NCBI RefSeq assembly: GCF_054482525.1
Contig: NZ_CM137006.1
Strand: one strand, 5' to 3'
Length of the DNA: 64,000 nucleotides
Each line of letters starts with the position of its first letter. The stretch's first letter is position 1. Made by a program: the position numbers and the translations under genes. This document shows, in pieces, positions 1-20,465 of the stretch. The notes below the pieces were generated by a model. That model was given only the letters and a program-made list of their open reading frames with translations, had not been told where the DNA came from and did not search any database.

Positions 1-96
1 TTTCCCGTTCGTTAACAAACAAGTGCGCCATCTCATATCCGCTCCTTGCGGAGGCTTACGTCTGCATGTCAGTTACTCATTAAAGGAATATCAGAA

Positions 97-630
97 ATGA
101 ACAATTCACCCTTACTCAACCATTACCAGGCCTGGCTGGATGATTTTACCCGCGTCAGTCTGTTCCACGGTTTATGCCAGAAGCACATCTCGCAGTGGCA
201 CAGGCTGGCGATAACCGCCTGCCCGATGCCAGGCAGTAGCGTAACAGAAGTCGTCATTCCACAGTGTCTGCTGCCGGTTACCCGCACCAGTCGACTGGGA
301 TCATGTACTGTCGCCCCCGGTCTGACTAAACACATCGATTATGCCCTTCTGCCCGGTGTGCTGCTCAGCGAATGTTATCGACTGGGGAAAAGTCGGCTGG
401 CAGACCAGTTACAGATGTTATTCCGGCTTAATGTACAGTCCGGTATGCGCCAGGCGCTGATCCTGCTGTGCTGGTGTGAGCTGGCAACAGGTAAGGATAT
501 GGAGGAATGGTATGCGCTGCATCTGCCACTGCCTGACACGCTGACGCAATGGTTGGCAGTAAAACAGCGGGCATACCGGGGACTGAAGACGCTGACTGAC
601 GGTTACATTCGTGCCACCCAGCCGATGTGA
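97..630 (+). CDS. hypothetical protein (island cargo, no domain recognised)
   Basis: Long ORF in six-frame track (46..630); ATG at 97 preceded by aggaa is the likely start. No motif recognised by eye. Confidence 0.35.
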   Translation: MNNSPLLNHYQAWLDDFTRVSLFHGLCQKHISQWHRLAITACPMPGSSVTEVVIPQCLLPVTRTSRLGSCTVAPGLTKHIDYALLPGVLLSECYRLGKSRLADQLQMLFRLNVQSGMRQALILLCWCELATGKDMEEWYALHLPLPDTLTQWLAVKQRAYRGLKTLTDGYIRATQPM

Positions 631-640
631 GGGACGGATA

Positions 641-1024
641 ATGCTGATACCAAAATGCTATATTGCACAGCGTAAAACCGGTGAGATTTTCGCTGTCAGC
701 CAACTGAATTCAGGCGATGAAGAGTGGTTCTGCCATCACTGCCAGTGCCCGTTGATTTTCCATTCCCCCACCATAACGTCACCGCCCTGGTTCGAACACG
801 ACATACTTCAGGGACAACCAGAAGCACTGTTGCAATGCCCCTATCTGGCCCCCGTCAATGCAAAGCCTTCAGCGGTGGCTAAGCTACAGCGCCTTCTGGC
901 ACAACTCCCACCGGTCATCACGACCACACAATGGCAATGTACCATGTGCGGCCTGTCATATTGCGGCGAGAAGTGCTGCCCTCAATGTAGAAAAGGGATA
1001 TATAGTCGGGAGATACGAATTTAG
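641..1024 (+). CDS. hypothetical Cys-rich protein (several CxxC-type pairs, possible zinc-binding)
   Basis: ORF 611..1024; ATG at 641 after gagggacgg. Translation contains CHHCQC, CTMC, CGEKCCPQC clusters. Confidence 0.35.
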   Translation: MLIPKCYIAQRKTGEIFAVSQLNSGDEEWFCHHCQCPLIFHSPTITSPPWFEHDILQGQPEALLQCPYLAPVNAKPSAVAKLQRLLAQLPPVITTTQWQCTMCGLSYCGEKCCPQCRKGIYSREIRI

Positions 1025-1351
1025 TGATACGTACCAGGCAATCATGGGATTGATTGGTACACCAGAAAGTTATTATATGGGGGCATATAACTTCGGAGTA
1101 AAAATCAATCACTTTCTATCATCCGGCCCCTGGTGCTTGTGGATTCGTAATTCATAAACCATGACGGGTTGGTAATATTAATTAACCAACTGATATATAA
1201 ACAATATTATCTCATTGTCACGCTCATATACGGTTACTCATACACGACAGCCTTAATTGCTGGCATCACCCTTTAAATCCTTAATCCCTTTAACAGCCCA
1301 TTGCGGGTAAGGCTTTGCCCTGCCCGTAATTTATTACCCAAGGAAAATTAT

Positions 1352-1963
1352 ATGTTTGACAATATCTGTCTCGATAGACGGCATGCACCATTCAACACCA
1401 CTTACCTACAGCGTATTCTACGCGTTATAGATAACGCGACTGCAGAGCATGCACGGACGATGGCAGTTCGGGTAGACCTGCGTCTTCCTGACAATATGCT
1501 CATTAACCGACAGGGCCTGATATCTCGTTTCATTGAATCCCTTGATGCAAAGATTGCAGCGCGCTACAGAAGTAAGTTGAAGCAGGGTAAACGAACATAT
1601 CCATGCCACCTTCGCGATGCCTGGGTTCGGGAGGTGGGTGAGATTAATCAGAAATCGCATTACCACATGGTGTTGTTCGTGAATAACGATACATTCAATG
1701 GGCTGGGGAGTTACAAAGAAGATGGGACGGGCCTGGCGTCCTTGATACGAGAGGCCTGGCTGAGTGCTTTACAGCTTAGTCACCGCCCAGAGCACTGGAC
1801 GCTAGCCCACTATCCCGATAATCCACTTTATTTTCTGGATATTAATTCCGCTGGCTACAAAGAGTCTTATGACCAACTGACGTTTCGGTTAAGTTATTTT
1901 GCGAAGGAACGCACCAAAGATTACAACAGGGAGGAACGTTCATTCGGATGTAGCCAGGGCTGA
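1352..1963 (+). CDS. YagK/YfjJ-family protein (inovirus Gp2-like domain common in CP4-type islands)
   Basis: ORF 1301..1963; ATG at 1352 after aaggaaaa. Translation (MFDNICLDRRHAPFNTTYLQRIL...) resembles YagK/YfjJ proteins as I recall them. Confidence 0.55.
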   Translation: MFDNICLDRRHAPFNTTYLQRILRVIDNATAEHARTMAVRVDLRLPDNMLINRQGLISRFIESLDAKIAARYRSKLKQGKRTYPCHLRDAWVREVGEINQKSHYHMVLFVNNDTFNGLGSYKEDGTGLASLIREAWLSALQLSHRPEHWTLAHYPDNPLYFLDINSAGYKESYDQLTFRLSYFAKERTKDYNREERSFGCSQG

Positions 1964-2753
1964 ATTCGGTACATCGTTTTGCTGGTGGCACTATATTTGC
2001 GCCACAACGCCATAGTGTGTCAACCACACCGCTATTCCCCTCACAATACCGTTAAACCATTCAACCACATGGCGTCAGTCTGCCCATCAAGGGCGGCTTA
2101 CACCTGCTTGCAGAAGTCGGATTATATTTGACGCCAACGACGGTAATAGTCGTTTGACGAGCGCCAGAACGGTACAGAAAGATATATAGTATCGTAGGCA
2201 GGCTTGATACCCCTGTTATCGTGCAGTCTTGGCACTGCGCTTGGTTCGGATACCATTACTAGGGCAAAAAGCACTGTGTGGTCTGTGGTATCGGGAAATA
2301 TAGCACGGAAGAATCAAACTGGCTGATGAATGACACCAGAGCGCCTGCGTGAGGTCCACCGTATTTCCTCCAACCAACACAGAGAAAAAATCATAATGAG
2401 CTACCACCAGTTAATCATCACAAATACAAAGTCGGCGGACAGTGCACGCATTCACCACGTATTACAGCAACCCGGATGGTTTCGAAATACAATTGGCAGC
2501 GTTGAAAGAGGTTGCATTGCAAATGGTTTTTTCAGTGATGACTGCCTGCAGTGACCTGTTTAAATGATCACTGTCACGTTATCTGGATTGCGCAGTTGCT
2601 TGGGTTGCAGTATGTCTCATCTTAGACTGTGTTGATGTTATTGTTGAGATCAGCACTCCGGCAGATGGCCAAATTCAGTAAACCACTTCAAAAGGCACAT
2701 TTATGCAACCTCATCAGCGGTGACCCGTAAAAATTGCAAATTAAGGAGCAATA

Positions 2754-4853
2754 ATGAACCGAGAGCAAGCCCAACAACTGCTGCAGACTGCTTTGGCTAA
2801 CCCTGCTGCTGAATTTCGTGATGGTCAGTGGGAAGCCATTGATGCATTGGTTAATCGTCGTCAGAAACTACTGGTTGTACAGCGTACCGGCTGGGGTAAG
2901 AGCTCGGTTTATTTTATTAGTACTAAAATCTTCCGTGACCGCGAGATGGGGCCTACGATTATTGTATCGCCACTGCTTGCATTAATGCGTAACCAGATTG
3001 ATTCAGCGCAGCGTTTGGGAATAGTTGCCGAAACAATGAATTCGGCTAATAGGGAGGATTGGCAGGCTGTAACTCAACGAATTCTCAATAACCAAATAGA
3101 CTGTTTGCTCATTTCCCCAGAGCGGCTAGCAAATGATACCTTTATTGAGACGGTCCTTCAGCCCATTGCCGATCGAATCGCCCTAATGGTAATTGACGAA
3201 GCACACTGTATTTCAGATTGGGGTCATGATTTTCGTCCTGATTATCGCCGTATCGTAAATATCCTTCGTCAATTGCCCGCCAACACCCCAGTACTAGGTA
3301 CGACTGCAACTGCCAATAACCGAGTTGTTGACGATATCCAAGCCCAGCTTGGGGATATACAAATCCACCGAGGTCCTCTTACTCGCGAAAGCCTCGCTCT
3401 GCATACAATGTCTTTACCCGATCAGGCATCTCGTTTAGCTTGGCTCGCCCAAGTTATTCCGATGCTACATGGAACAGGCATTATTTACGCATTAACAGTT
3501 CGTGATGCCGAGCAGGTGGCAGAATGGTTGAGCATGCACGGTATAGTTGCCATGGCATACCACGGTAGCATCGAGGCTGAAGGTTTTGAGAACAGCAATG
3601 CTTACCGTCAGTACTTAGAAGAATTGTTACTTAACAACCAGCTTAAGGTTTTAGTAGCAACGACCGCGTTGGGTATGGGTTATGATAAACCTGATTTAAG
3701 TTTTGTAATCCATTACCAAGCTCCGAGTTCAATTGTTGCATACTACCAGCAGGTGGGTCGGGCTGGGCGCGGTATTGCTCATGCAACAGGTGTACTGATG
3801 TCGGGGATAGAAGATAACGACATCCATGATTTTTTCCGTGATTCTGCATTTCCATCGGAGGATCAAGTTAACGATATTCTTCGAGTGTTGGAAAATAATG
3901 ATGGTCTATCACTCCGCAACATCGAGGAAAAAACTAACCTACGCCACGGCCAGATTGAGAAAGTACTTAAGTTACTGAGTGTAGAAAATCCAGCCCCCAT
4001 CATTAAAAATGAAAATCGTTGGGTTAGGACCACAGTTCGCTATCAAATGGATCATGCCCGAATTGCTCATTTGACAGGACAACGTATTCAGGAATGGGAA
4101 GAGGTTCAAGCGTACCTTACCGACACTGGATGCAAAATGGCATTTCTACGTCGTTCTCTGGACGATCTCGACCCAACTCCATGTGGTAAATGCTCGTCCT
4201 GTATTGGTCAACCAATTATAAATCAAATCATTGACCCTGCTTTGGTACATCGTGCAGGGACTTTCCTAAAACATGCAGAAATGCCGATTACTCCAAAAGC
4301 TCAGGTAGCAGCTAATGCTTTTTTGCAATATGGCTTCAGCGGCAATTTGCCACAGCAGATTAGAGCACAAGAAGGTCGAGTGTTGTCTCGCTGGGGAGAT
4401 GCTGGTTGGGGACGGTTAGTAGCCGATAATAAACGTGCAGATCACTTTGATGATGAGCTAGTGGTTGCTATGGCCGAGATGATTCAGCAGCGTTGGCAAC
4501 CGAATCCAGCGCCACAATGGGTATGCTGTGTACCTTCACGCAATCATGTACAATTAGTCCCTGATTTCGCTCGCCGCTTGGCGGCATGTTTGAGGTTGCC
4601 TTTTTTCAATGCCATCAGCAAGGTTAGAGATAACCAACCTCAAAAGGGGCAACAAAACCGTTTCCATCAATGCCGCAATCTGGACGGTGCTTTTGAGATA
4701 AATCAACCTCTACCTAACACACCGGTTCTACTTGTAGATGACATTGTAGATTCAGGCTGGACGTTAACTGTCATCGCAGCACTCCTACAACGCGCAGGTA
4801 GTGGTAAAGTATACCCTGTTGCACTTGCTTCATCTTCGGTAAAAGACTCATGA
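2754..4853 (+). CDS. RecQ-family helicase fused to a C-terminal phosphoribosyltransferase-like (ComF-like) domain; ShosT-like candidate
   Basis: 699 aa ORF. N-terminal RecQ motifs (FRDGQWEAI, TGWGKSSVY Walker A, DEAHCISDWGHDFRPDY); C-terminus has a PRTase-type motif (VLLVDDIVDSGWT). RBS aaggag upstream. Confidence 0.75.
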   Translation: MNREQAQQLLQTALANPAAEFRDGQWEAIDALVNRRQKLLVVQRTGWGKSSVYFISTKIFRDREMGPTIIVSPLLALMRNQIDSAQRLGIVAETMNSANREDWQAVTQRILNNQIDCLLISPERLANDTFIETVLQPIADRIALMVIDEAHCISDWGHDFRPDYRRIVNILRQLPANTPVLGTTATANNRVVDDIQAQLGDIQIHRGPLTRESLALHTMSLPDQASRLAWLAQVIPMLHGTGIIYALTVRDAEQVAEWLSMHGIVAMAYHGSIEAEGFENSNAYRQYLEELLLNNQLKVLVATTALGMGYDKPDLSFVIHYQAPSSIVAYYQQVGRAGRGIAHATGVLMSGIEDNDIHDFFRDSAFPSEDQVNDILRVLENNDGLSLRNIEEKTNLRHGQIEKVLKLLSVENPAPIIKNENRWVRTTVRYQMDHARIAHLTGQRIQEWEEVQAYLTDTGCKMAFLRRSLDDLDPTPCGKCSSCIGQPIINQIIDPALVHRAGTFLKHAEMPITPKAQVAANAFLQYGFSGNLPQQIRAQEGRVLSRWGDAGWGRLVADNKRADHFDDELVVAMAEMIQQRWQPNPAPQWVCCVPSRNHVQLVPDFARRLAACLRLPFFNAISKVRDNQPQKGQQNRFHQCRNLDGAFEINQPLPNTPVLLVDDIVDSGWTLTVIAALLQRAGSGKVYPVALASSSVKDS

Positions 4854-6175
4854 ATGTATCTAACTTATTGTCAAAAACAGCCCAGGCGACCTTACTTCTG
4901 ACTAGTTATTTTTCTAAAGCAACTAGCGAAAACGCCAAACCACTTTCCAACGCCGAATGGGGACGTTTTGCGCTATGGTTGAAAGAAAAAGCAGTTACGC
5001 CAGCTGACTTGTTGGACTCTGATCCTCAAACCTTACTGAATGGCTGGTACGACTCCCGTATCAGTACGGATCGGATCATTGAGTTGATGAATCGAGGACA
5101 TAGCCTCGCTTTGGCTATGGAGAAATGGCAACGGGCAGGCTTGTGGGTAGTGACACGTTCTGATCCAGAATATCCATGGAGATTAAAACATCGGCTTAAA
5201 ACAGACTCTCCCCCTGTTTTATTTGGCTGTGGCAATAAAGCCTTATTAAATAGAGGGGGATTGGCTGTCATTGGTTCTCGAAATGCCAATGCATCAGACC
5301 TTACTTTTACTGATCACATCGGCGTTAAAGCTGCGGACGAAAATATAGCTGTTGTATCTGGTGCTGCACGTGGAGTAGACGAAACAGCCATGTTAGGTGC
5401 AATGAGGCAAGGTGGAGTTGTAATCGGGATTTTGGCAGATAGCCTGTTAAAAGCTGCGACTAGTGCCAAATGGCGCAAGGGGCTTATGAATGACCATGTT
5501 GTGCTAATATCCCCTTTTTACCCTGAGGCTGGTTTCTATGCGGGAAATGCCATGGCTCGCAATAAATATATCTATTGCTTGTCGGATAGTGCATTGGTTA
5601 TTCATTCTGGTCGAAAAGGTGGAACAATTAGTGGGGCAGAGGAAAATCTTAAGAAAGGATGGGTGCCACTATGGGTCAATCCAACAACCGATCTAGATTC
5701 AGCTAATGCTGACTTAGTGAGCAAAGGGGGACATTGGTTGCCAAGTGATAGTAATGGCCTATCCATCGAGAATTTGCTTAAAAATAATGACAGATCAAAA
5801 ATGCAGTTAAAAGCAGAGCCCCAAGATCTTTTTTCAGAATTGTCGCATCCAGAATTAATTATTGGATCTGCAGAGAAATCGTCAACTCAAGCTCTCGAAA
5901 AAGATTGGACTGCTACTATTAATGAAGAAACTCCCAACCTAATAACTACGGAAAAAAAATTAGAGGAAAAAGAGTTAGATGTAAATCCTATAGACTTTTA
6001 TCTGCTATTCAGGACAGAATTACAGCGATTGGCCGAACATCCAATTACAGTAGATAGGTTGACAGAAGTCACTGGGTTGAATAAATCGCAAGTGCTTGAT
6101 TGGTTGAAACGTGCTGAACAAGATGGTTTGGTAAAAAAACTAAACCGTCCTACAAGATATCAATTAAATGAGTAG
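4850..6175 (+). CDS. DprA/Smf-like Rossmann-fold protein; ShosA-like candidate
   Basis: 441 aa ORF whose ATG overlaps the upstream stop (ATGA). DprA-type motifs: LAVIGSRNAN, VVSGAARGVDETAMLGA, ARNKYIYCLSDSALVIHSG. Confidence 0.7.
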   Translation: MNVSNLLSKTAQATLLLTSYFSKATSENAKPLSNAEWGRFALWLKEKAVTPADLLDSDPQTLLNGWYDSRISTDRIIELMNRGHSLALAMEKWQRAGLWVVTRSDPEYPWRLKHRLKTDSPPVLFGCGNKALLNRGGLAVIGSRNANASDLTFTDHIGVKAADENIAVVSGAARGVDETAMLGAMRQGGVVIGILADSLLKAATSAKWRKGLMNDHVVLISPFYPEAGFYAGNAMARNKYIYCLSDSALVIHSGRKGGTISGAEENLKKGWVPLWVNPTTDLDSANADLVSKGGHWLPSDSNGLSIENLLKNNDRSKMQLKAEPQDLFSELSHPELIIGSAEKSSTQALEKDWTATINEETPNLITTEKKLEEKELDVNPIDFYLLFRTELQRLAEHPITVDRLTEVTGLNKSQVLDWLKRAEQDGLVKKLNRPTRYQLNE

Positions 6176-6271
6176 TAACAGGCTTTAATGAAGCAACTAT
6201 AACCGGTTTGGCCTTAATGATTTTTAGTTAAGCTTGGGCATATAAAAGTTTAGAATTGATATAATGGTATT

Positions 6272-6302
6272 CAATTACATTAGTGTTGAGCTAATGTAAT
6301 TG
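6272..6302. terminator. hairpin between convergent genes (12-bp stem caattacattag / ctaatgtaattg, 7-nt loop)
   Basis: Inverted repeat read directly in the gap between the DprA-like gene end (6175) and the RelA/SpoT-like gene end (6357). Confidence 0.45.
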
Positions 6303-6356
6303 ATCCTGATTTAAATATCATCTATCAGAATTGAACAATTTTACATAGTTTATACT

Positions 6357-7346
6357 TTATGTCTTTCTTTCAAGTGCAACTCCTAGATCCGCTGCCATTT
6401 TTTGGATTAGCCTCCAATCTAGCGGCCATTCTTTTTCTAAAGTAGATCTCCGTCTTTTGATTAACCAGTAAACGAAAATAACAACGCTTTGTTCAAAGAA
6501 ACTACTCCCTTCTTTGCCATCCTGAATTAGTAGTTCGAGCTCAGGAGTCTCTTCTATAAATTGATGTAATCTTTCTATCGTATCGGGTTTGATCACTTCT
6601 TTAAATGTATCTAGAATTAATAAAGTCGATTTTTGATTGTTTGGTTTATTCTTTGTTAAAGCTATGTAGATATTATCTAAAGTTCGCTGAATTCCTGCGT
6701 AACCATCAGATGCTGCGTTAATTGCTTTCGATACTGAACAGAAAAAATCATCCGTAGTTTCTATTAACGCCATGCTTTTTGCTACAGTTCTATGTATATC
6801 TGGTTCAACTATAGTTTTTGCTTTATATATGGCATCATGAGTTAACTCGGCATAGGCATGTTGTAATAAAGATCTAACCTGTATCTCACATGGAATGCCT
6901 TGTTCAATGATAACTCCATTATAATCAAAGGATTCTTTTGCAGTTACTATAAAATGTACGGATTGATACGTGAAAATTAATGGTGTATTTAATCTTTCTT
7001 CTTCGTAGTGTCTTGATGTCTTATAATGCCATTTATTACTACTTTTTATTATTTCACATATTTCATCTATATCTGAAGTAAGTAAAACGACAAACCTGAT
7101 GCCAACTTTATCTTCAATCTCTTGGTAGGGGTTTTTGTATGATTTTTCTTTTCGATGAAAAGCTTTATCGATTAGAGATGTCTTTTCTTTTATTCTCGGT
7201 GTCGCAGGTTGCTTGAGAAAGCTATTGAGGTCCCGCTCTTTATTTTCTGAGAGTTCTTTGCAAATATTTGAGACGACAAAATCTCCCCATGCTTTATACA
7301 TGGGTAGTTCTTTTTCCCAAAGTTGCGAAAACTCTAATTCATTCAT
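6357..7346 (-). CDS. RelA/SpoT-domain nucleotidyltransferase (alarmone-synthetase-like, stand-alone)
   Basis: 329 aa ORF. Synthetase-domain motifs GIRFVVLL, YQSVHFIV, EIQVRSLLQHAYAELTHD; no hydrolase or TGS/ACT region seen. Start ATG 8 nt after upstream stop. Confidence 0.65.
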   Translation of the reverse strand: MNELEFSQLWEKELPMYKAWGDFVVSNICKELSENKERDLNSFLKQPATPRIKEKTSLIDKAFHRKEKSYKNPYQEIEDKVGIRFVVLLTSDIDEICEIIKSSNKWHYKTSRHYEEERLNTPLIFTYQSVHFIVTAKESFDYNGVIIEQGIPCEIQVRSLLQHAYAELTHDAIYKAKTIVEPDIHRTVAKSMALIETTDDFFCSVSKAINAASDGYAGIQRTLDNIYIALTKNKPNNQKSTLLILDTFKEVIKPDTIERLHQFIEETPELELLIQDGKEGSSFFEQSVVIFVYWLIKRRRSTLEKEWPLDWRLIQKMAADLGVALERKT

Positions 7347-7354
7347 TAATTAGC

Positions 7355-8446
7355 TCATTCCTGAAGGGTTATCTTGTCCTTGATGAGGATTGTTGTCCAC
7401 TCAGCAGGTTTACCATCTTTATCGAGTTCACCTATAGTAGATTCAATTACAATATGGCTTTTAAAAACTTCCGCAGGGGCTGTGATTTTTATATTTTTAC
7501 TAAAGTTAAGCTTTCTTGTTTTTAATTTGCTTTCAATATGCTCGTTGTCTCTTGTGAAAGAGGTTTGTGGTATACCAGATTCATGAGCATACTCAAGATA
7601 AAGATCCTTAATACTATCATCAAAAAATCTTTCAGCATAATCTTTAGCTGAAATTACATCCGATTTTTCATGTTTAAGATATGTAACTAATGCATTTTTA
7701 AGCACATTTTTCTTTTCCTCGCTGACATCCAATTCATTAAGAAATTCACTCGTTTTTTCATAGAAATTCTTTGTTGTGCGGGCACTTGTTTCTGGGTAAC
7801 CGCAACCTAAAAAATTTTGATAAAAATATTGTGCTGCAGCTTTACCATCCGACTTACTGATTTGATAGTCAGAAATCATCACATCCCAAGATTTATTAAG
7901 ATCAGTATTATCAAGAGAATTGGTTGATTGGAAAAAACCGGCAGTTTTATAAAGTTTTGTGGATGGTGTAAGTAATATTTCTTCAACGAATTTTAATGAT
8001 ATTTGGCCCGTTTTATCGTCGATTACTTTTTCATATGCACTATAAATATCAGCCTTGATAATTCCAATGAATTTTCTTTTATTTACACCATAGTCGCCAG
8101 AAAAGATTACTACAATTCCGCCTGGAATTGCTCGTCTTGTCTGCGCATCTGCCAGTTTATTAGCTATTGTGTAAGTCTCATCAATATAATCCTCTCCCTC
8201 TTTATCAATTAAAGTTGTAGCAATATAAGGAACATAATCTTTTCCATGCTCCTTTATTTGCATTTTTACGGCTTTAGAACCATCACCTAAAGCGTCGATT
8301 ACTCGTGATTTAAAACCTTGCAAGGCATCAGCATCAAATTTTATAAATGAAGAACCTCTTGTTGGTTCTATTTTGTTTCCTTCTTCGTCGCGCTGATGAA
8401 TTTGGTGGATAATTATTTTGTTAATATTCATTTTGCTGATATTCAT
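7355..8446 (-). CDS. NdpA/YejK-like (NA37 family) nucleoid-associated protein homologue
   Basis: 363 aa ORF. N-terminus IIIHQIHQRDEEG resembles the E. coli YejK IALHQLIKRDEQ region as I recall it. AT-rich. 17-nt gap to upstream gene. Confidence 0.55.
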   Translation of the reverse strand: MNISKMNINKIIIHQIHQRDEEGNKIEPTRGSSFIKFDADALQGFKSRVIDALGDGSKAVKMQIKEHGKDYVPYIATTLIDKEGEDYIDETYTIANKLADAQTRRAIPGGIVVIFSGDYGVNKRKFIGIIKADIYSAYEKVIDDKTGQISLKFVEEILLTPSTKLYKTAGFFQSTNSLDNTDLNKSWDVMISDYQISKSDGKAAAQYFYQNFLGCGYPETSARTTKNFYEKTSEFLNELDVSEEKKNVLKNALVTYLKHEKSDVISAKDYAERFFDDSIKDLYLEYAHESGIPQTSFTRDNEHIESKLKTRKLNFSKNIKITAPAEVFKSHIVIESTIGELDKDGKPAEWTTILIKDKITLQE

Positions 8447-8463
8447 TTCTGTGTAGTTCCATC

Positions 8464-8931
8464 TTATTGATTATCTGATTTTATATTTTTGCTTTCAATA
8501 TATTCTTTGTGAATATTATTCCATTCTTGACTGTCTTTTTCCCAAATAGATTTATATTCATCAAAAAGACTATCAATATCTGACTGGGTTACATCTTCTT
8601 TGGATTTTAAGTAATTAACTTTGTTTCTAAGTTGATACATGGCTAGCAAAGTAGCTTTTTGCCTAAACCATAATTTTTGATAATCAAATCTTGCAGTCCA
8701 CCCACTAACTAGAGTAAGACAGGCACTCACAATAAGAGCAGAATTTTTCTGTATTTTTTCATATCCAGATAAATCGAAGGCTAATATCAGTGTAGTAATA
8801 GTGCTCAAAAATATAGTCATGAAAAAAAATATTTTTAATTTTTTTTTATTCCATTTCGCCTTGCACTTTATTATGTTGATACTTTTATGGATTTCATCCA
8901 GTAAAAACTGTTGAGAAGATGTTATAGACAA
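8464..8931 (-). CDS. small membrane protein with two predicted transmembrane helices (SLATT-like topology, unverified)
   Basis: 155 aa ORF; hydrophobic stretches IFFFMTIFLSTITTLILAF and SALIVSACLTLVSGWTA. First codon is TTG; an internal ATG (MTIFL...) is an alternative start. Confidence 0.45.
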   Translation of the reverse strand: MSITSSQQFLLDEIHKSINIIKCKAKWNKKKLKIFFFMTIFLSTITTLILAFDLSGYEKIQKNSALIVSACLTLVSGWTARFDYQKLWFRQKATLLAMYQLRNKVNYLKSKEDVTQSDIDSLFDEYKSIWEKDSQEWNNIHKEYIESKNIKSDNQ

Positions 8932-8971
8932 TTATCTCACCTGAAATATTTTCACATTGGTAATAAAACTA

Positions 8972-9011
8972 CTCGCACTAACTGGTATGAGCTCATACCA
9001 GTTAGTGCGAG
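8972..9011. promoter_or_regulatory. perfect 40-bp palindrome (ctcgcactaactggtatgag / ctcataccagttagtgcgag) between integrase 3' end and the AT-rich operon
   Basis: Read directly; the two 20-nt arms are exact reverse complements centred on gagctc. A U-rich tract follows on the minus strand, so it may terminate the integrase transcript. Confidence 0.5.
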
Positions 9012-9175
9012 CATGGCTACCGCATTTGATGTGCTCAACAGCTTTGTATTGAGATACTTTTAACAATGTTGTATTTAACTAGCTGATACTATTAATTATA
9101 AATGAGAATCAGAGCAAAAACGAGCGGTAGGTAAGATATAGACCGAAAGCATATAAAACCATAAATATCAAATCA

Positions 9176-10378
9176 TTACACTACCGCATGTAAGATTCTA
9201 CGTACAGAGTGTAGATCAATCAAATAGTCTGAATACCACTGCATCATCTCTCTTCGCCCCTCCAGATATTGCGCATGGTTGTACGTCCCACGAATCGCAT
9301 TCTTATCGACATGCGCAAGCTGGGTTTCAATCCATGCCGTGTTGAACCCTTCCTCGTGCAAAATCGTACTCATCGTGTGACGGAAACTATGCCCCGTTAC
9401 CTTCCCCGTATACCCAATCCGTTTGAATACCTGATTAATACTCGCTTCACTCATCGTTTTACGTGGATCATTGCGCCCTGGGAACACCAAAGGATATTGC
9501 CCGGACATTACTTTGAGCTGTTGTACGATTTCTAGCGCTTGGGTAGAGAGGGGTACAAGATGGGGCCGTTTCATCTTCATACGCTCTGCAGGTATTTCCC
9601 ACACCGCTTTCTCAAGATCAAACTCACTCCAGAAAGCACCTCGAAGCTCGCCAGTACGAACTCCCGTAAGGATAAGCAGACGAGCGGCAAGAACAACTAA
9701 CGGGCTTCCTGTATAACCTGCGAGAGCTTTAAAGAAGTCTGGTAACTCCTCTACTGACAGGAAGGGATAATGCTTCGATTCATGCCCTGACATCGCGCTG
9801 GTTAGGTCCGCTGCAGGATTGTATTCCGCGCGACCTGTAACGATGGCATAACGAAAGACTTCGCTGCAGCGCTGGCGAACCTTCTTGGCCTTCTCTGTCG
9901 CGCCACGGCTTTCGATTCGACGCAGCACATTAAGCAGAACCAGCGGTTTGATTTCATTCACTGGCAGTTGGCCGATATAGGGGAAAATATCTTTATTGAA
10001 GGCTTCGATAATATCGGAGGCATAGCCTTCTGACCACCGGCTCACCTTAGTACCGTGCCACTCAAGCGCCACAGACTGGAACGTGTTGTTGAGCTGCACA
10101 TCGCGAACCAGCTTTTCTTCTTTCTTTGCGAAAGACGGGTCGATACCCTCGGCCAGCTTTTTCTTGGCTTCATCACGCAGAGCCCTCGCTTGTGCAAGGG
10201 AAACAGCCGGATAGACCCCAAAAGCCATACGCTTCTCTTTTCCATTGAAGCGATATTTCATTCGCCAGTATCGAGAACCAGAGGGAACGACTTCAAGATA
10301 CAAGCCAGCACCATCTGCCAGCTTATAGGCTTTCTCTTTGGGTTTAGCAGCGTCTACCTGTCGCGCATTAAGCTTCAT
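9176..10378 (-). CDS. int: P4-type tyrosine integrase (site-specific recombinase)
   Basis: ORF 9176..10417; likely start is the ATG at 10378 (MKLNARQVDAAKPKEKAYKLADGAGLYLEV...) with GGAG 9 nt upstream. Sits directly beside the tRNA-Thr 3' end. Confidence 0.85.
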   Translation of the reverse strand: MKLNARQVDAAKPKEKAYKLADGAGLYLEVVPSGSRYWRMKYRFNGKEKRMAFGVYPAVSLAQARALRDEAKKKLAEGIDPSFAKKEEKLVRDVQLNNTFQSVALEWHGTKVSRWSEGYASDIIEAFNKDIFPYIGQLPVNEIKPLVLLNVLRRIESRGATEKAKKVRQRCSEVFRYAIVTGRAEYNPAADLTSAMSGHESKHYPFLSVEELPDFFKALAGYTGSPLVVLAARLLILTGVRTGELRGAFWSEFDLEKAVWEIPAERMKMKRPHLVPLSTQALEIVQQLKVMSGQYPLVFPGRNDPRKTMSEASINQVFKRIGYTGKVTGHSFRHTMSTILHEEGFNTAWIETQLAHVDKNAIRGTYNHAQYLEGRREMMQWYSDYLIDLHSVRRILHAVV

Positions 10379-10541
10379 TGGGGGCATCTCCCTGGACCGA
10401 ACACAGAATGCCCCCACTTATGCCCCCAACTGCGACTTGATTTCGGTTGAGTCCAGTTGATAACAGGAGATAAGATACGGGCCAGAAACCGCAGTATACG
10501 GGCTTTTAGTTGATTTCGGTAGACTTGGGAAGAGTTTGAAA

Positions 10542-10617
10542 TGGTGCCGATAATAGGAGTCGAACCTACGACCTTCGCATTACGAATGCGCTGCTCTACC
10601 AACTGAGCTATATCGGC
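10542..10617 (-). tRNA. thrW: tRNA-Thr (anticodon CGU), thrW-like
   Basis: Reverse complement reads GCCGATATAGCTCAGTTGGTAGAGCAGCGCATTCGTAATGCGAAGGTCGTAGGTTCGACTCCTATTATCGGCACCA, 76 nt with CCA end and anticodon loop TTCGTAA. Confidence 0.9.
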
Positions 10618-10731
10618 CCTGAAAGGACATGTTCACGAACGTGAATCACGGTGGACAAGGTTAAAACTAACCGGGCGATGCGTCAATGGCCTTGTGAATC
10701 AAATGGCTACTTTTGCATCACCCGATTTTAT

Positions 10732-11985
10732 TTACGCACGAATGGTGTAATCACCAATGCCGATCCACTTGTAAGTGGTCAGCGCTTCCAGCCCCATTGG
10801 GCCACGCGCGTGGAGTTTTTGTGTGCTTACCGCCACTTCCGCGCCCAGTCCAAACTGGCCGCCGTCGGTAAAACGCGTAGAGGCGTTAACGTAAACAGCG
10901 GATGAATCTACTTCATTAACAAAACGCTGGGCGTTGCGCATATCGCGGGTCAGGATCGAATCGGAGTGTTGTGTGCCGTGTTCACGAATATGAGCGATGG
11001 CATCGTCAAGATCGCTGACGATTTTGACGTTCAAATCTAATGACAGAAACTCATCGTCATACTCTTCAGCTTTAACAGCAACCACCTTCGCGGGACCTGC
11101 CTGCAATTGCGTCAGTGCGGTAGCATCGGCGTGTAACGTCACACCGCTTTCAGCCATCTGTTTGCTTAACACAGGCAGGAAGCTATCGGCGATGTTTTTA
11201 TTCACCAGCAACGTTTCTACCGTATTACATGTGCTCGGACGCTGAGTTTTCGCGTTGACGATTACTTTCAGGGCTTCAGCGATCTCTGCACTTTCATCAA
11301 CGTAAATATGGCATACGCCTATACCGCCTGTGATCACCGGGATTGTCGACTGTTCGCGGCACAGCTTATGCAGGCCAGCGCCTCCACGCGGGATCAGCAT
11401 GTCGATGTATTTATCCATACGCAGCATTTCACTGACCAGCGCGCGGTCAGGATTATCAATCGCCTGTACTGCACCTGCCGGTAAACCACAAGAGTTCAGG
11501 GCGTCCTGAATCACCGCCACCGTTGCAGCGTTAGTGCGGCAGGTTTCTTTGCCACCACGCAGGATCACCGCGTTACCCGTTTTCAGGCACAGCGAAGCGA
11601 CATCAACCGTCACGTTCGGGCGCGCTTCATAAATCACGCCAATCACCCCCAGCGGTACGCGACGACGCTCCAGACGCAGACCGCTGTCCAGCACACTACC
11701 ATCAATCACCTGCCCCACCGGATCGGCGAGATTACACACCTGGCGCACATCGTCGGCGATGCCTTTCAGCCGTGCGGGCGTCAGTGCCAGACGGTCAAGC
11801 ATCGCTTCGCTAAGGCCATTGGCACGCGCGTCAGCAACATCCTGGGCGTTAGCGTTGAGGATGATTTCGCTTTGAGCTTCCAGTTCATCGGCGATTTTTT
11901 CCAGCACACGATTTTTTTCGCGGCTGGAGAGTTGCGCTAATTTATACGAGGCTTGCTTCGCGGCAATGCCCATTTGTTCCAGCAT
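10732..11985 (-). CDS. proA: gamma-glutamyl phosphate reductase
   Basis: 417 aa translation matches E. coli ProA as recalled ([19 protein letters not shown]...). Confidence 0.95.
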
Positions 11986-18509: not shown

Positions 18510-18898
18510 TTATCCTTCGATAAAAGCCATCCCTGTAAATGTCCGTCGCGGGTTGCCACGTTCAATTTGATGATGGAACATTCGCCACTGCGATTTCAGC
18601 GCCGCGCTATTTTCCTGTTGCTGTTGTTCCAGCTTCCAGGCAATCAGCAATCGCGCCAGCCGCTTGTTAGCATGCCCAGAAACCAGTTTTTGCGCCCATG
18701 ATGAGGCCGATACGGACTCGGACAAATCCACTGAATAGTGCCGCACCAACTTTCGCTTAATGCCCATGCGTTATCGCCATCCAGAGAAATCAGCGCCGAA
18801 CGCAGCGTGTCAGAGTAGCGGCCCGTTTCTGTTTCCAGCACCGTTACCGCGACGTCTTGCCGGGTAAAAACGGCCTGCGGAGAAGAACGCTGCGCCAA
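18510..18898 (-). pseudogene. prfH: peptide chain release factor H homologue remnant, split across two frames
   Basis: Two overlapping minus-strand ORFs (18510..18767 and 18644..18898) carry release-factor-like segments in different frames. Boundaries approximate. Confidence 0.45.
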
Positions 18899-19076
18899 TC
18901 GGGTAGCCGCGTCCGGGGTGTAAATCTGGCATCCCTACTACGCGCTGCATGTTGGGTAAATTTGCCGTGGTGTGTAATTGTTGGATCGCTAAACTCTCGA
19001 TCCACAGGCCATCAGATGCGATGGTAAATACCGCATCGGATAAGGGACGAATAGATTTGCCCATGTACCATCCCAT
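18810..19076 (-). pseudogene. ykfJ: RtcB-like RNA ligase N-terminal fragment (ykfJ-like remnant)
   Basis: 88 aa ORF containing an RtcB-type [18 protein letters not shown] motif; far too short for a full RtcB. Boundaries approximate. Confidence 0.4.
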
Positions 19077-19308: not shown

Positions 19309-19761
19309 TTAATGTTGCGGTTTATATCGCATAGAAAAATTAGTAAACCACGCTCCCCTGCATTCAACGCGCTGCTGCTTAACTGTCTGAAAACCATAAC
19401 GTTCAAAAAAGGGTTTTGCGGTTATGCTTGCGTCCACCGTAAGTTCGGATTCAGACTTAATCAAAGGTTTTAACAAAGCGCTGGCAACCCCACGGCGGGT
19501 GTATTCAGGGTCAACAAATAACATATCGATATAGTGTTCAATGCGGGAAATAAAACCAACCGGTTGTGCATTAATGATCGCAACCCATACTTGTGATTTC
19601 GCGAGTTTCTCCTTCCAGCGAGATTCGTCAATCTGCGCCCAGGCGGCAATTTGTTGTGGTGAATAATGCTGACTGGCGGTCATCGTAACCGCTCTAAGGA
19701 AAATAGCGCATAGTTGCTGAAAATCGCCAGGCTGATAGTTTCTTATTTGTATGTTATTCAT
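19309..19761 (-). CDS. yafP: GNAT-family acetyltransferase YafP
   Basis: 150 aa translation matches YafP; last gene of the dinB-yafNOP operon. Confidence 0.9.
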   Translation of the reverse strand: MNNIQIRNYQPGDFQQLCAIFLRAVTMTASQHYSPQQIAAWAQIDESRWKEKLAKSQVWVAIINAQPVGFISRIEHYIDMLFVDPEYTRRGVASALLKPLIKSESELTVDASITAKPFFERYGFQTVKQQRVECRGAWFTNFSMRYKPQH

Positions 19762-19770
19762 AATATAAAT

Positions 19771-20169
19771 TCAAAAACGCATGCGAAACGCTTCTGCCAT
19801 TTTCCCAATTTTATGCATTTGGTTGTTATCTCGAGCCAGTTTATGAGGTTCAGGTTTCAGAATGGCAATGAGCAACCATGCTTGCTCATCAAACGCACCC
19901 TGACAATATACCAAATGCGCTTCGTCATTCGTTCTGCTGAATTGGCGCAACTGTGGCGGAAATGGATTATTCACATTTGCCAGATGAATATGAGCAACTC
20001 GCTCAAATTTGATTAATGGCCAGGTAAACGAGTCGTCGTAGAGTGCATCGCGACCAAATATATCTGGCAAAACACCGTCACGCTTATAGGAAATAAAATC
20101 CGCCGTTAACGCATCAAGTTCCTCTGCTGTAAGTTGCAGGCAAATAAGTTTTGTTTTGAATACCCGCAT
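19771..20169 (-). CDS. yafO: YafO toxin (ribosome-dependent mRNA interferase)
   Basis: 132 aa translation matches YafO; adjacent to yafN. Confidence 0.9.
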   Translation of the reverse strand: MRVFKTKLICLQLTAEELDALTADFISYKRDGVLPDIFGRDALYDDSFTWPLIKFERVAHIHLANVNNPFPPQLRQFSRTNDEAHLVYCQGAFDEQAWLLIAILKPEPHKLARDNNQMHKIGKMAEAFRMRF

Positions 20170-20171
20170 CC

Positions 20172-20465
20172 TTATTCCTTAAAGTCATTGAAATCATCAT
20201 CCGTCATATCATTAAGATATTGTTCAGCGCGGCGTGTAATTTCCTCTAATCTTGCGGCACTCGGACGGAAGCGCGCCTTAACCAGTTTTTTCTCCTCTTG
20301 TTCAGCAAGCATGTCCATTAACGCTTCGAATGCGCTGGCACTTAAGAGATATCCTGCGGGGCGATTATTAGAAAGAACCGCAACTGGTTGATCAATAAAG
20401 TATTTAGCTGGGTTTTTACGTAACTCAGTGATATTGACCGATTTTTCAGCGAGAATTCGATGCAT
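20172..20465 (-). CDS. yafN: YafN antitoxin
   Basis: 97 aa translation matches YafN (MHRILAEKSVNITELRKNPAKYF...). Confidence 0.9.
   Translation of the reverse strand: MHRILAEKSVNITELRKNPAKYFIDQPVAVLSNNRPAGYLLSASAFEALMDMLAEQEEKKLVKARFRPSAARLEEITRRAEQYLNDMTDDDFNDFKE

Follow-up and report, generated by a model that had tools for sequence, protein, structure and literature searches.

The thrW tRNA gene in the DNA studied here (64,000 nucleotides of contig NZ_CM137006.1, assembly GCF_054482525.1; this whole stretch is called the window below) is the insertion site of a 23.6-kb non-autonomous integrative island, which very probably carries two modules of the abortive-infection type, PsyrTA and an operon of type I PANGU with a SLATT gene, in a slot directly behind its integrase gene. 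The whole segment is 100% identical to Escherichia coli SCU-102 (NZ_CP051753.1, reverse strand), a strain from a rectal swab of a healthy student. In that chromosome the island extends from about 869,734 to 893,319, and window positions 1-10617 are its integrase-proximal part. Coordinate 1 is only the edge of the window and marks no biological boundary. Positions beyond this edge are given on a longer SCU-102 stretch, L001, from which window positions are obtained by subtracting 19,000 (the offset was checked).

Integration of the island is directed at the tRNA gene, whose 3' end the island restores. The attachment (att) core AAATGGTGCCGATAATAGGA consists of the last 17 nt of the tRNA and 3 further nucleotides, and a second exact copy of it, at L001 5973-5992, starts 23,566 bp farther left. 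This places the far boundary of the island about 13.0 kb outside the left edge of the window. The first-pass annotation, made from the letters alone, had put this boundary beyond the window and had proposed a repeat of the tRNA 3' end as the mark of the att sites, and it proves right on both points. When up to three mismatches are allowed, the 17-mer of the tRNA end occurs at just two sites in 48.7 kb, while 0.11 are expected by chance in shuffled sequence; a chance repeat is therefore rejected.

The empty site was reconstructed by joining L001 5601-5992 and 29559-29900. The resulting 734-nt junction, with the layout truncated short-chain dehydrogenase/reductase (SDR) gene, integrase scar, core, tRNA and proA, was searched in complete E. 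coli genomes. It is present without interruption in 15 of them at an identity of at least 98%, and at 100% in seven, among them PCN033 and an ST70 O7:H15 strain. Hence, the 23.6-kb segment is a discrete and precise insertion exactly at the core.

The island shares this tRNA with the scar of an older element. Directly outside the distal core there is a 159-nt fragment of an integrase C-terminus, followed by the truncated SDR oxidoreductase gene (L001 5239-5992). The fragment has 95-96% identity with the 3' ends of the int genes of SfI, SfII, SfIV and SfV, Shigella serotype-converting phages that integrate into thrW beside proA (PMC3636060). It is the remnant of an older thrW prophage of the SfV/SfI type, which was lost via a deletion reaching the flanking gene. 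The order of phage int end, core and island DNA shows that the island was inserted between thrW and this earlier lambdoid prophage scar.

Stacking in the opposite order is found in other strains. E. coli HS and XH992 have a related integrase, then the 17-nt core without the tRNA, and then tailspike/head-binding and Arc-repressor phage genes. In GF31 the core, again without the tRNA, precedes an autotransporter gene, beyond which lie phage tail and terminase genes. The same module, from int to the GTPase gene, adjoins thrW/proA in several assemblies of a large collection. In two assemblies with the same island (L017 and L018) an EcoRII restriction-modification element adjoins the integrase instead of thrW/proA, and just the 17-nt core is kept. 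The same 17-mer also borders CP4-6 in K-12, in agreement with the first-pass statement that K-12 carries this prophage at thrW.

The integrase gene is full-length and intact. It lies 163 bp beyond the tRNA 3' end on the same strand as thrW, and an alternative longer open reading frame, initiated at GTG, extends to 10417. The Pfam domains of the product, Arm-DNA-bind_3 (6e-29), Phage_int_M (1e-33) and Phage_integrase (8e-23), form the three-domain layout of P4/CP4-57-type integrases, and the P4-type integrase beside the 3' end of tRNA-Thr(CGU) reported by the first pass is thus confirmed. Downstream, in the gap that separates the integrase stop from the start of the SLATT gene, a perfect inverted repeat with a T-rich tail looks like a terminator and may act as an insulator at the junction of the backbone and the cargo operon. 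In one island copy that is otherwise identical (L014 6820-8028) an insertion sequence (IS) with a DDE_Tnp_1 domain lies between the integrase and the SLATT gene. The base composition also changes along the locus, with a GC content of 32-34% in the three-gene operon, about 46% in the psyrT/psyrA pair and 51-57% in the neighbouring thrW-proBA region.

The cargo behind the integrase is variable. The cargo modules were searched by megablast in 5,426 complete E. coli genomes. The integrase family is found in 214 of these genomes, always on the chromosome and with 91-96% nucleotide identity in nearly all, while the DNA of the PANGU operon and that of PsyrTA are each found in one, SCU-102 alone. The exact GRel protein of the operon is indexed in 631 blocks of a far larger assembly collection. 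The PANGU-operon query had a second match elsewhere in the SCU-102 chromosome (NZ_CP051753.1), probably a short low-GC repeat. The comparison with islands of five other strains, whose integrases are 78-96% identical, shows that homology stops within the integrase gene, about 44-60 nt before its 3' end, and that each has different cargo beyond this point: an ABC-three-component system in SE11, an HsdM-family methyltransferase with BREX in HS, HEPN and NACHT proteins in GF31, and uncharacterised large proteins with a radical SAM enzyme in XH992 and MLI107. Defence genes are present in at least three of the five.

The site itself, yagP-proA/tRNA-Thr(CGT), is listed by Hochhauser et al. 2023 (PMC10121019) as E. 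coli defence hotspot #33, which they detected in 555 genomes, with 275 of these being occupied. The SCU-102 island agrees with that description in its site and in the occurrence of integrase-bearing elements with variable defence cargo, and PsyrTA is catalogued there. However, the text of the survey that was examined does not name the SCU-102 island or the pairing of PANGU with PsyrTA, and PANGU was not yet known at that time. The YagK-family gene, the helicase-PRTase/DprA pair and the RelA/SpoT operon listed in the first-pass annotation are all present, and its view of the locus as a defence hotspot is supported by the two modules, by the other cargo of related islands and by the published status of the site.

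The part of the island to the left of the window bears on its present mobility. The annotation gives, from the window edge outwards, an AlpA-type helix-turn-helix gene, a hypothetical gene, a YkfA-type GTPase gene and a DUF932 gene; then a WYL/DeoR regulator, a DUF4339 gene and two hypothetical genes; then transposase fragments, an OLD-family ATP-dependent nuclease and a frameshifted IS3; and at the far end RadC, DUF987 and YeeU/CbtA. The AlpA-type homologue just left of the window is intact and is a candidate excisionase by its matches to PHROG excisionase families. The OLD-family nuclease (577 aa; L001 8063-11776) stands alone between the frameshifted IS3 and the transposase fragments and gives weak matches to NsnB, GajA and AriA; it is possibly a third defence gene, orphaned or brought in by an IS. 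Neither the annotation of the 23.6 kb nor PHROG scans of the backbone proteins revealed genes for replication, conjugation or packaging/capsid, which implies that any transfer would need a helper.

The absence of these genes, the frameshifted IS3 and transposase fragments of the distal half and the IS next to the integrase in the L014 copy are also what would be seen if the island were a fixed remnant, no longer mobile, like the K-12 cryptic prophages. It would then have spread by vertical descent or by recombination of the flanks, and its integrase would be a relic. We consider this unlikely. Against it stand the full-length integrase, whose family is conserved in 214 genomes, the intact excisionase homologue of the AlpA type, the perfect match of the 20-nt repeats, the exact empty site and the occurrence of the same module both adjoining thrW and displaced from it by other elements. 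We infer that the SCU-102 copy, as an integrative island dependent on a helper, may still be mobile and active in defence.

The first cargo module, at window positions 2754-6175, is by its sequence a straightforward member of the PsyrTA (= RqlHI) family. Both partners match their PADLOC models at full length, PsyrT with 1045 bits (residues 2-698) and PsyrA with 563 bits, and their genes overlap by 4 nt. In NCBIfam, PsyrT scores 245.7 bits with the recQ_fam subfamily model, above the cut-off of 219.8, and its residues 606-692 match ComF/GntX phosphoribosyltransferase (PRTase) models. A script check showed that K49, D148 and the DIVD motif at 663 are intact; these are the positions mutated in RqlH of the extraintestinal pathogenic E. 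coli (ExPEC) strain F11, whose PRTase domain is genotoxic unless it is held by RqlI and the helicase domain (PMC4670107). PsyrTA is among the phage-protective toxin-antitoxin systems of Millman et al. (10.1101/2022.05.11.491447). The SCU-102 pair shares the full-length partners, the overlapping genes and K49/D148/D663 with the described systems (Sberro 2013; Russell & Mulvey 2015, PMC4670107; Millman 2022), no difference being detected at the level tested, and its toxicity and phage defence are predicted from this literature.

The second module, the SLATT-NA37-GRel operon at 6357-8931 on the minus strand, fits the SLATT-bearing form of type I PANGU. PANGU was defined in a bioRxiv preprint of April 2026 (10.64898/2026.04.06.716658). 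Type I is described there as bicistronic, consisting of a nucleoid-associated protein (NAP), Pag1A, and of GRel (Pag1B), a toxic small alarmone synthetase (toxSAS). The NAP turns the inactive GRel tetramer into an active heterotrimer, and this complex makes guanosine pentaphosphate (pppGpp) from ATP and GTP and aborts infection. The activity is reported for systems of Ferrimonas, P. aeruginosa and E. coli, and a subset of the operons has an extra SLATT gene (10.64898/2026.04.06.716658).

The SCU-102 operon resembles type I PANGU in its gene order, in the architecture of the synthetase and in its linkage to a defence island. Its YejK-like NA37 gene is directly upstream of the gene of a GRel-family small alarmone synthetase (SAS), and the gap of 8 bp between them is within the 40-bp limit for PANGU; the gap between the SLATT and NA37 genes is 17 bp. 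The NA37 protein matches its Pfam model with E = 2.4e-17 at model positions 1-298 of 325, as well as PHROG 1974 and PHROG 3767, 'nucleoid associated protein', and is a candidate sensor of the Pag1A type. The GRel protein, in turn, is a candidate effector of the Pag1B type, with its subfamily assigned by taxonomic and architectural fit and not by a GRel-specific model. Its synthetase motifs R51/K53/S57/K61, D79/R84, Y127-Q-S-x-H131 and E154/Q156/R158 show no variation among 60 homologues, and G82 shows hardly any. The catalytic tyrosine of the Ferrimonas protein Pag1B-Ff is Y129 (10.64898/2026.04.06.716658), and Y127 is invariant in the SCU-102 family. More than 1,300 homologues of GRel were found; the 120 best listed are near-full-length, and their named sources are almost all gammaproteobacterial.

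In the AlphaFold2 model of GRel (mean pLDDT 82) residues 1-175 form a SYNTH domain, 183-231 a long helix and 239-320 an all-alpha C-terminal domain, which matches the Pag1B architecture of SYNTH domain, helical linker and C-terminal domain. In the Foldseek search of this model RelQ and RelP were the best matches (TMt 0.72-0.80), and the tRNA-modifying CapRel and FaRel2 scored far lower (TMt 0.32-0.39, root-mean-square deviation above 10 A). The fold is thus nearest to alarmone-making enzymes, in agreement with the pppGpp chemistry reported for PANGU. Sequence searches against the PDB returned generic SAS enzymes alone for GRel and nothing for the NA37 protein. PADLOC-DB v2.0.0 (2023) does not call the SLATT-NA37-GRel operon a system and gives weak PDC-S33 and '2TM effector' matches.

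The genomic context was sampled at eight loci, SCU-102 included, with the other seven GRel proteins being 47-78% identical. NA37 directly precedes GRel in all eight. The SLATT gene is upstream of NA37 in six, namely in E. coli, Pectobacterium, Yersinia, Klebsiella aerogenes, Ferrimonas and a Methylococcaceae genome, the last having a different subfamily, SLATT_4; all of these SLATT calls are above the NCBIfam cut-off. At the two remaining loci, of Vibrio harveyi and of an Acinetobacter prophage, the SLATT gene is absent. Most of the sampled loci lie in or near genes of mobile elements, such as integrases by tRNA-Ser or tmRNA, AlpA, ArdC, CbtA and prophage regulators.

These data also bear on whether the RelA/SpoT operon is instead a classical toxSAS toxin-antitoxin pair of the FaRel/CapRel type, with the toxin neutralised by the product of the neighbouring gene. 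Such modules are common on mobile elements, and the only PADLOC match is the weak one to PDC-S33. Nevertheless, we find this improbable: the partner is a full-length NA37 protein of 363 aa, which is kept in every sampled locus, and the fold is nearer to the alarmone synthetases than to CapRel/FaRel2. Moreover, in the preprint the NAP activates GRel and does not neutralise it, and neither gene is toxic alone (10.64898/2026.04.06.716658).

The SLATT protein scores 86.9 bits with the SLATT_1 model (cut-off 41) and gives weak PADLOC matches to the two-transmembrane (2TM) effectors of cyclic-oligonucleotide-based antiphage signalling systems (CBASS). Hydropathy and charge reveal a hydrophobic stretch at residues 32-56 and an acidic tail at the C-terminus of the protein. 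Gene callers differ in its start and give either 118 or 155 aa (L013-L018, about 8416-8883). The 155-aa form with the TTG start is favoured, since its N-terminal residues are also conserved in the orthologues of Pectobacterium and Yersinia. With SLATT_1 and the weak '2TM effector' match, the first gene of the operon is similar to the CBASS-type 2TM/SLATT effectors. However, the operon has no CD-NTase/SMODS cyclase, and its sole nucleotide-producing enzyme is the RelA/SpoT-type pyrophosphokinase.

By its presence at six of the eight sampled loci SLATT looks like a frequent, conserved accessory and not an occasional passenger. The membrane protein most likely serves as an accessory second effector. 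It is less probable, and we regard it as unlikely, that SLATT is an integral third component of this lineage of PANGU, a membrane-perforating effector gated either by the released NA37 protein on its acidic tail or by the (pp)pGpp made by GRel. If gating by (pp)pGpp were true, the alarmone would control a pore in the role of an immune second messenger, similarly to the cyclic nucleotides of CBASS. The ABC-three-component system adjacent to the integrase in SE11 includes a DUF3732 protein (L002 15809-19475), and in the PANGU preprint the NAP 'Cluster 7' is paired with DUF3732, whether by coincidence or through a shared effector family.

The backbone of the island was compared with CP4-6 by tblastn against the 260-300 kb region of K-12. 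CbtA/YeeU, DUF987, RadC, DUF932 and the YkfA-type GTPase are similar at 77-96% amino acid identity, and the similarity is weaker for YagK, with 39% to the YagK of K-12. Both elements use thrW with the same 17-nt att core. However, the integrase of the island is unrelated to intF, giving no tblastn match in the K-12 region at 1e-5. In K-12 the cbtA/YeeU end adjoins thrW and intF is distal, whereas in SCU-102 the integrase adjoins thrW. CP4-6 also has other cargo and a length of 34 kb, compared to 23.6 kb for the SCU-102 island. CP4-6 may be a composite or inverted element.

This backbone also decides whether the element is a P4-like phage satellite, a kind of element with integrases of this type and with known defence hotspots. 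In K. aerogenes (L019 3401-11779) a 78%-identical SLATT-NA37-GRel operon lies in a tmRNA-integrated element together with AlpA and a DUF927 protein, which we take to be primase-like. PANGU-type operons are hence also carried on elements resembling P4-type satellites. The integrase belongs to the P4 family, and hotspot #33 is reported to host such satellites (PMC10121019). A satellite is still highly improbable here. The P4 hallmarks, that is, the alpha primase-helicase, sid, psu and delta, are neither annotated across the 23.6 kb nor found among the backbone proteins scanned, whose PHROG matches are just the excisionase families of the AlpA homologue and families of unknown function; on these grounds the satellite identity is rejected. 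The most fitting description of the element, with its backbone of the CP4 type, is that of a non-autonomous CP4-type integrative island. Finally, the reading of the region as conserved core lying beside a tRNA by coincidence, for which the ubiquity of thrW-proA alone could be quoted, is refuted by the cargo being present in one of 5,426 complete genomes, the att repeats, the precise empty site in 15 genomes and the atypical GC content. The two findings named in the first-pass annotation as refuting an island, a missing att repeat and a gene content of conserved core, are both contradicted.

For this non-autonomous island we propose the following sequence of events.

Step 1: The P4/CP4-57-type integrase recombined the att site of the island with the last 17 nt (and 3 further nt) of thrW. 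This recombination regenerated the tRNA and produced the 20-nt direct repeat that marks the far end of the island. It took place beside the scar of the older SfV/SfI-type lambdoid prophage at the same tRNA.

Step 2: The slot directly behind the integrase serves as a variable cargo bay. In the SCU-102 copy, the genotoxic PRTase domain of PsyrT would be restrained by its DprA-like partner.

Step 3: By homology with the characterised PANGU systems, the YejK-like protein would coat the chromosome, and a phage nuclease degrading the host DNA would release it. The released NA37 protein would then bind GRel, and the pppGpp made from ATP and GTP would result in the shutdown of transcription and translation.

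Several observations weigh against this account. The best NCBIfam match of the integrase, PRK09692, is sub-threshold, with 300 bits compared to the curated cut-off of 434. IS elements have eroded the distal half of the island, as fits an element heading for fixation. The scan for promoter-like sites showed no enrichment (18 sites versus 23 in shuffled controls), and no promoter was assigned. The SCU-102 operon has three genes in place of the two that define type I PANGU, and its homology to the experimentally tested PANGU systems is indirect, through family, domain, architecture and a Ferrimonas sp. homologue of 51% identity. The C-terminal surface published for PANGU is an acidic DNA mimic (DMK). 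Judged from its sequence, the C-terminal domain of the SCU-102 GRel (residues 216-329) has a net charge of zero and an isoelectric point of 6.8, with just a local acidic patch at 241-285 of -4 to -6. Excision, transfer and phage defence of the SCU-102 copy are predictions from the sequence.

The features of the integrase-proximal part are collected below. The tRNA is the sole one found. A search for non-coding RNA in the 790-bp gap upstream of psyrT was negative, the Rfam scan of 1-11000 at E <= 0.1 giving just the tRNA and its antisense artefact. The 177-aa backbone protein at the left edge had no match in PADLOC, NCBIfam or PHROG.

Features of the integrase-proximal part of the thrW island, in window coordinates
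Feature	Position	Strand	Evidence
Hypothetical backbone protein, 177 aa	97-630	+	RefSeq CDS; position kept in other island copies
Zinc-ribbon protein (DUF7828 / Zn_ribbon_11), backbone gene	641-1024	+	RefSeq; Pfam data precomputed for identical copies
YagK/YfjJ (inovirus Gp2-like) backbone gene	1352-1963	+	RefSeq name; Pfam YagK_YfjJ_C on identical copies; PHROG 25019
PsyrT/RqlH, RecQ-like helicase with C-terminal PRTase domain, 699 aa	2754-4853	+	PADLOC PsyrT, NCBIfam
PsyrA/RqlI, DprA-like antitoxin/partner, 441 aa	4850-6175	+	PADLOC PsyrA, NCBIfam dprA domain
GRel-type small alarmone synthetase, 329 aa (candidate effector)	6357-7346	-	Pfam RelA_SpoT 1.3e-15
YejK-like nucleoid-associated protein, NA37 family, 363 aa (candidate sensor)	7355-8446	-	Pfam NA37
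SLATT_1-domain membrane protein, 155 aa, TTG start, operon gene 1	8464-8931	-	NCBIfam SLATT_1
Perfect 20-bp inverted repeat, 4-nt loop, T-rich tail (terminator-like)	8970-9013	-	Terminator scan; between integrase stop and SLATT start
Intact tyrosine integrase, P4/CP4-57 type, 400 aa	9176-10378 (RefSeq start 10378, stop 9176)	-	Pfam, RefSeq
tRNA-proximal att core AAATGGTGCCGATAATAGGA (written for the + strand), 20 nt	10539-10558 (L001 29539-29558)	.	Direct-repeat search, pattern searches
tRNA-Thr(CGU), thrW	10542-10617	-	ARAGORN; Rfam tRNA 71.8 bits; RefSeq

The core flank differs among strains as well. In SCU-102 prfH and the neighbouring gene of an rtcB-family ligase (window 18510-19064) are pseudogenes, frameshifted or truncated, and in SE11 they are intact; in MLI107 prfH is complete and rtcB extends past the examined stretch. 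The toxin-antitoxin content of the flank also varies (window 19309-20465 compared to L002 31273-37606 in SE11): SCU-102 has yafNOP upstream of dinB, and SE11 is without yafN and yafO and has hicAB and dinJ-yafQ nearby.

The components of the thrW island all come from described families and its hotspot is already published; the finding is in this respect largely ordinary. The SCU-102 island is nevertheless a fully delimited example, with exact att sites, an exact empty site, stacked integrations and a defence-swapping slot behind the integrase, and it places the recently described PANGU in a native E. coli context beside PsyrTA. For surveillance and phage therapy, strains of the SCU-102 type would be flagged as having two abortive-infection systems, of which PADLOC-DB v2.0.0 (2023) recognises PsyrTA alone. 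The sole point that goes beyond the published account of PANGU is the conserved and frequent SLATT partner, which suggests a possible second, membrane-directed effector arm.

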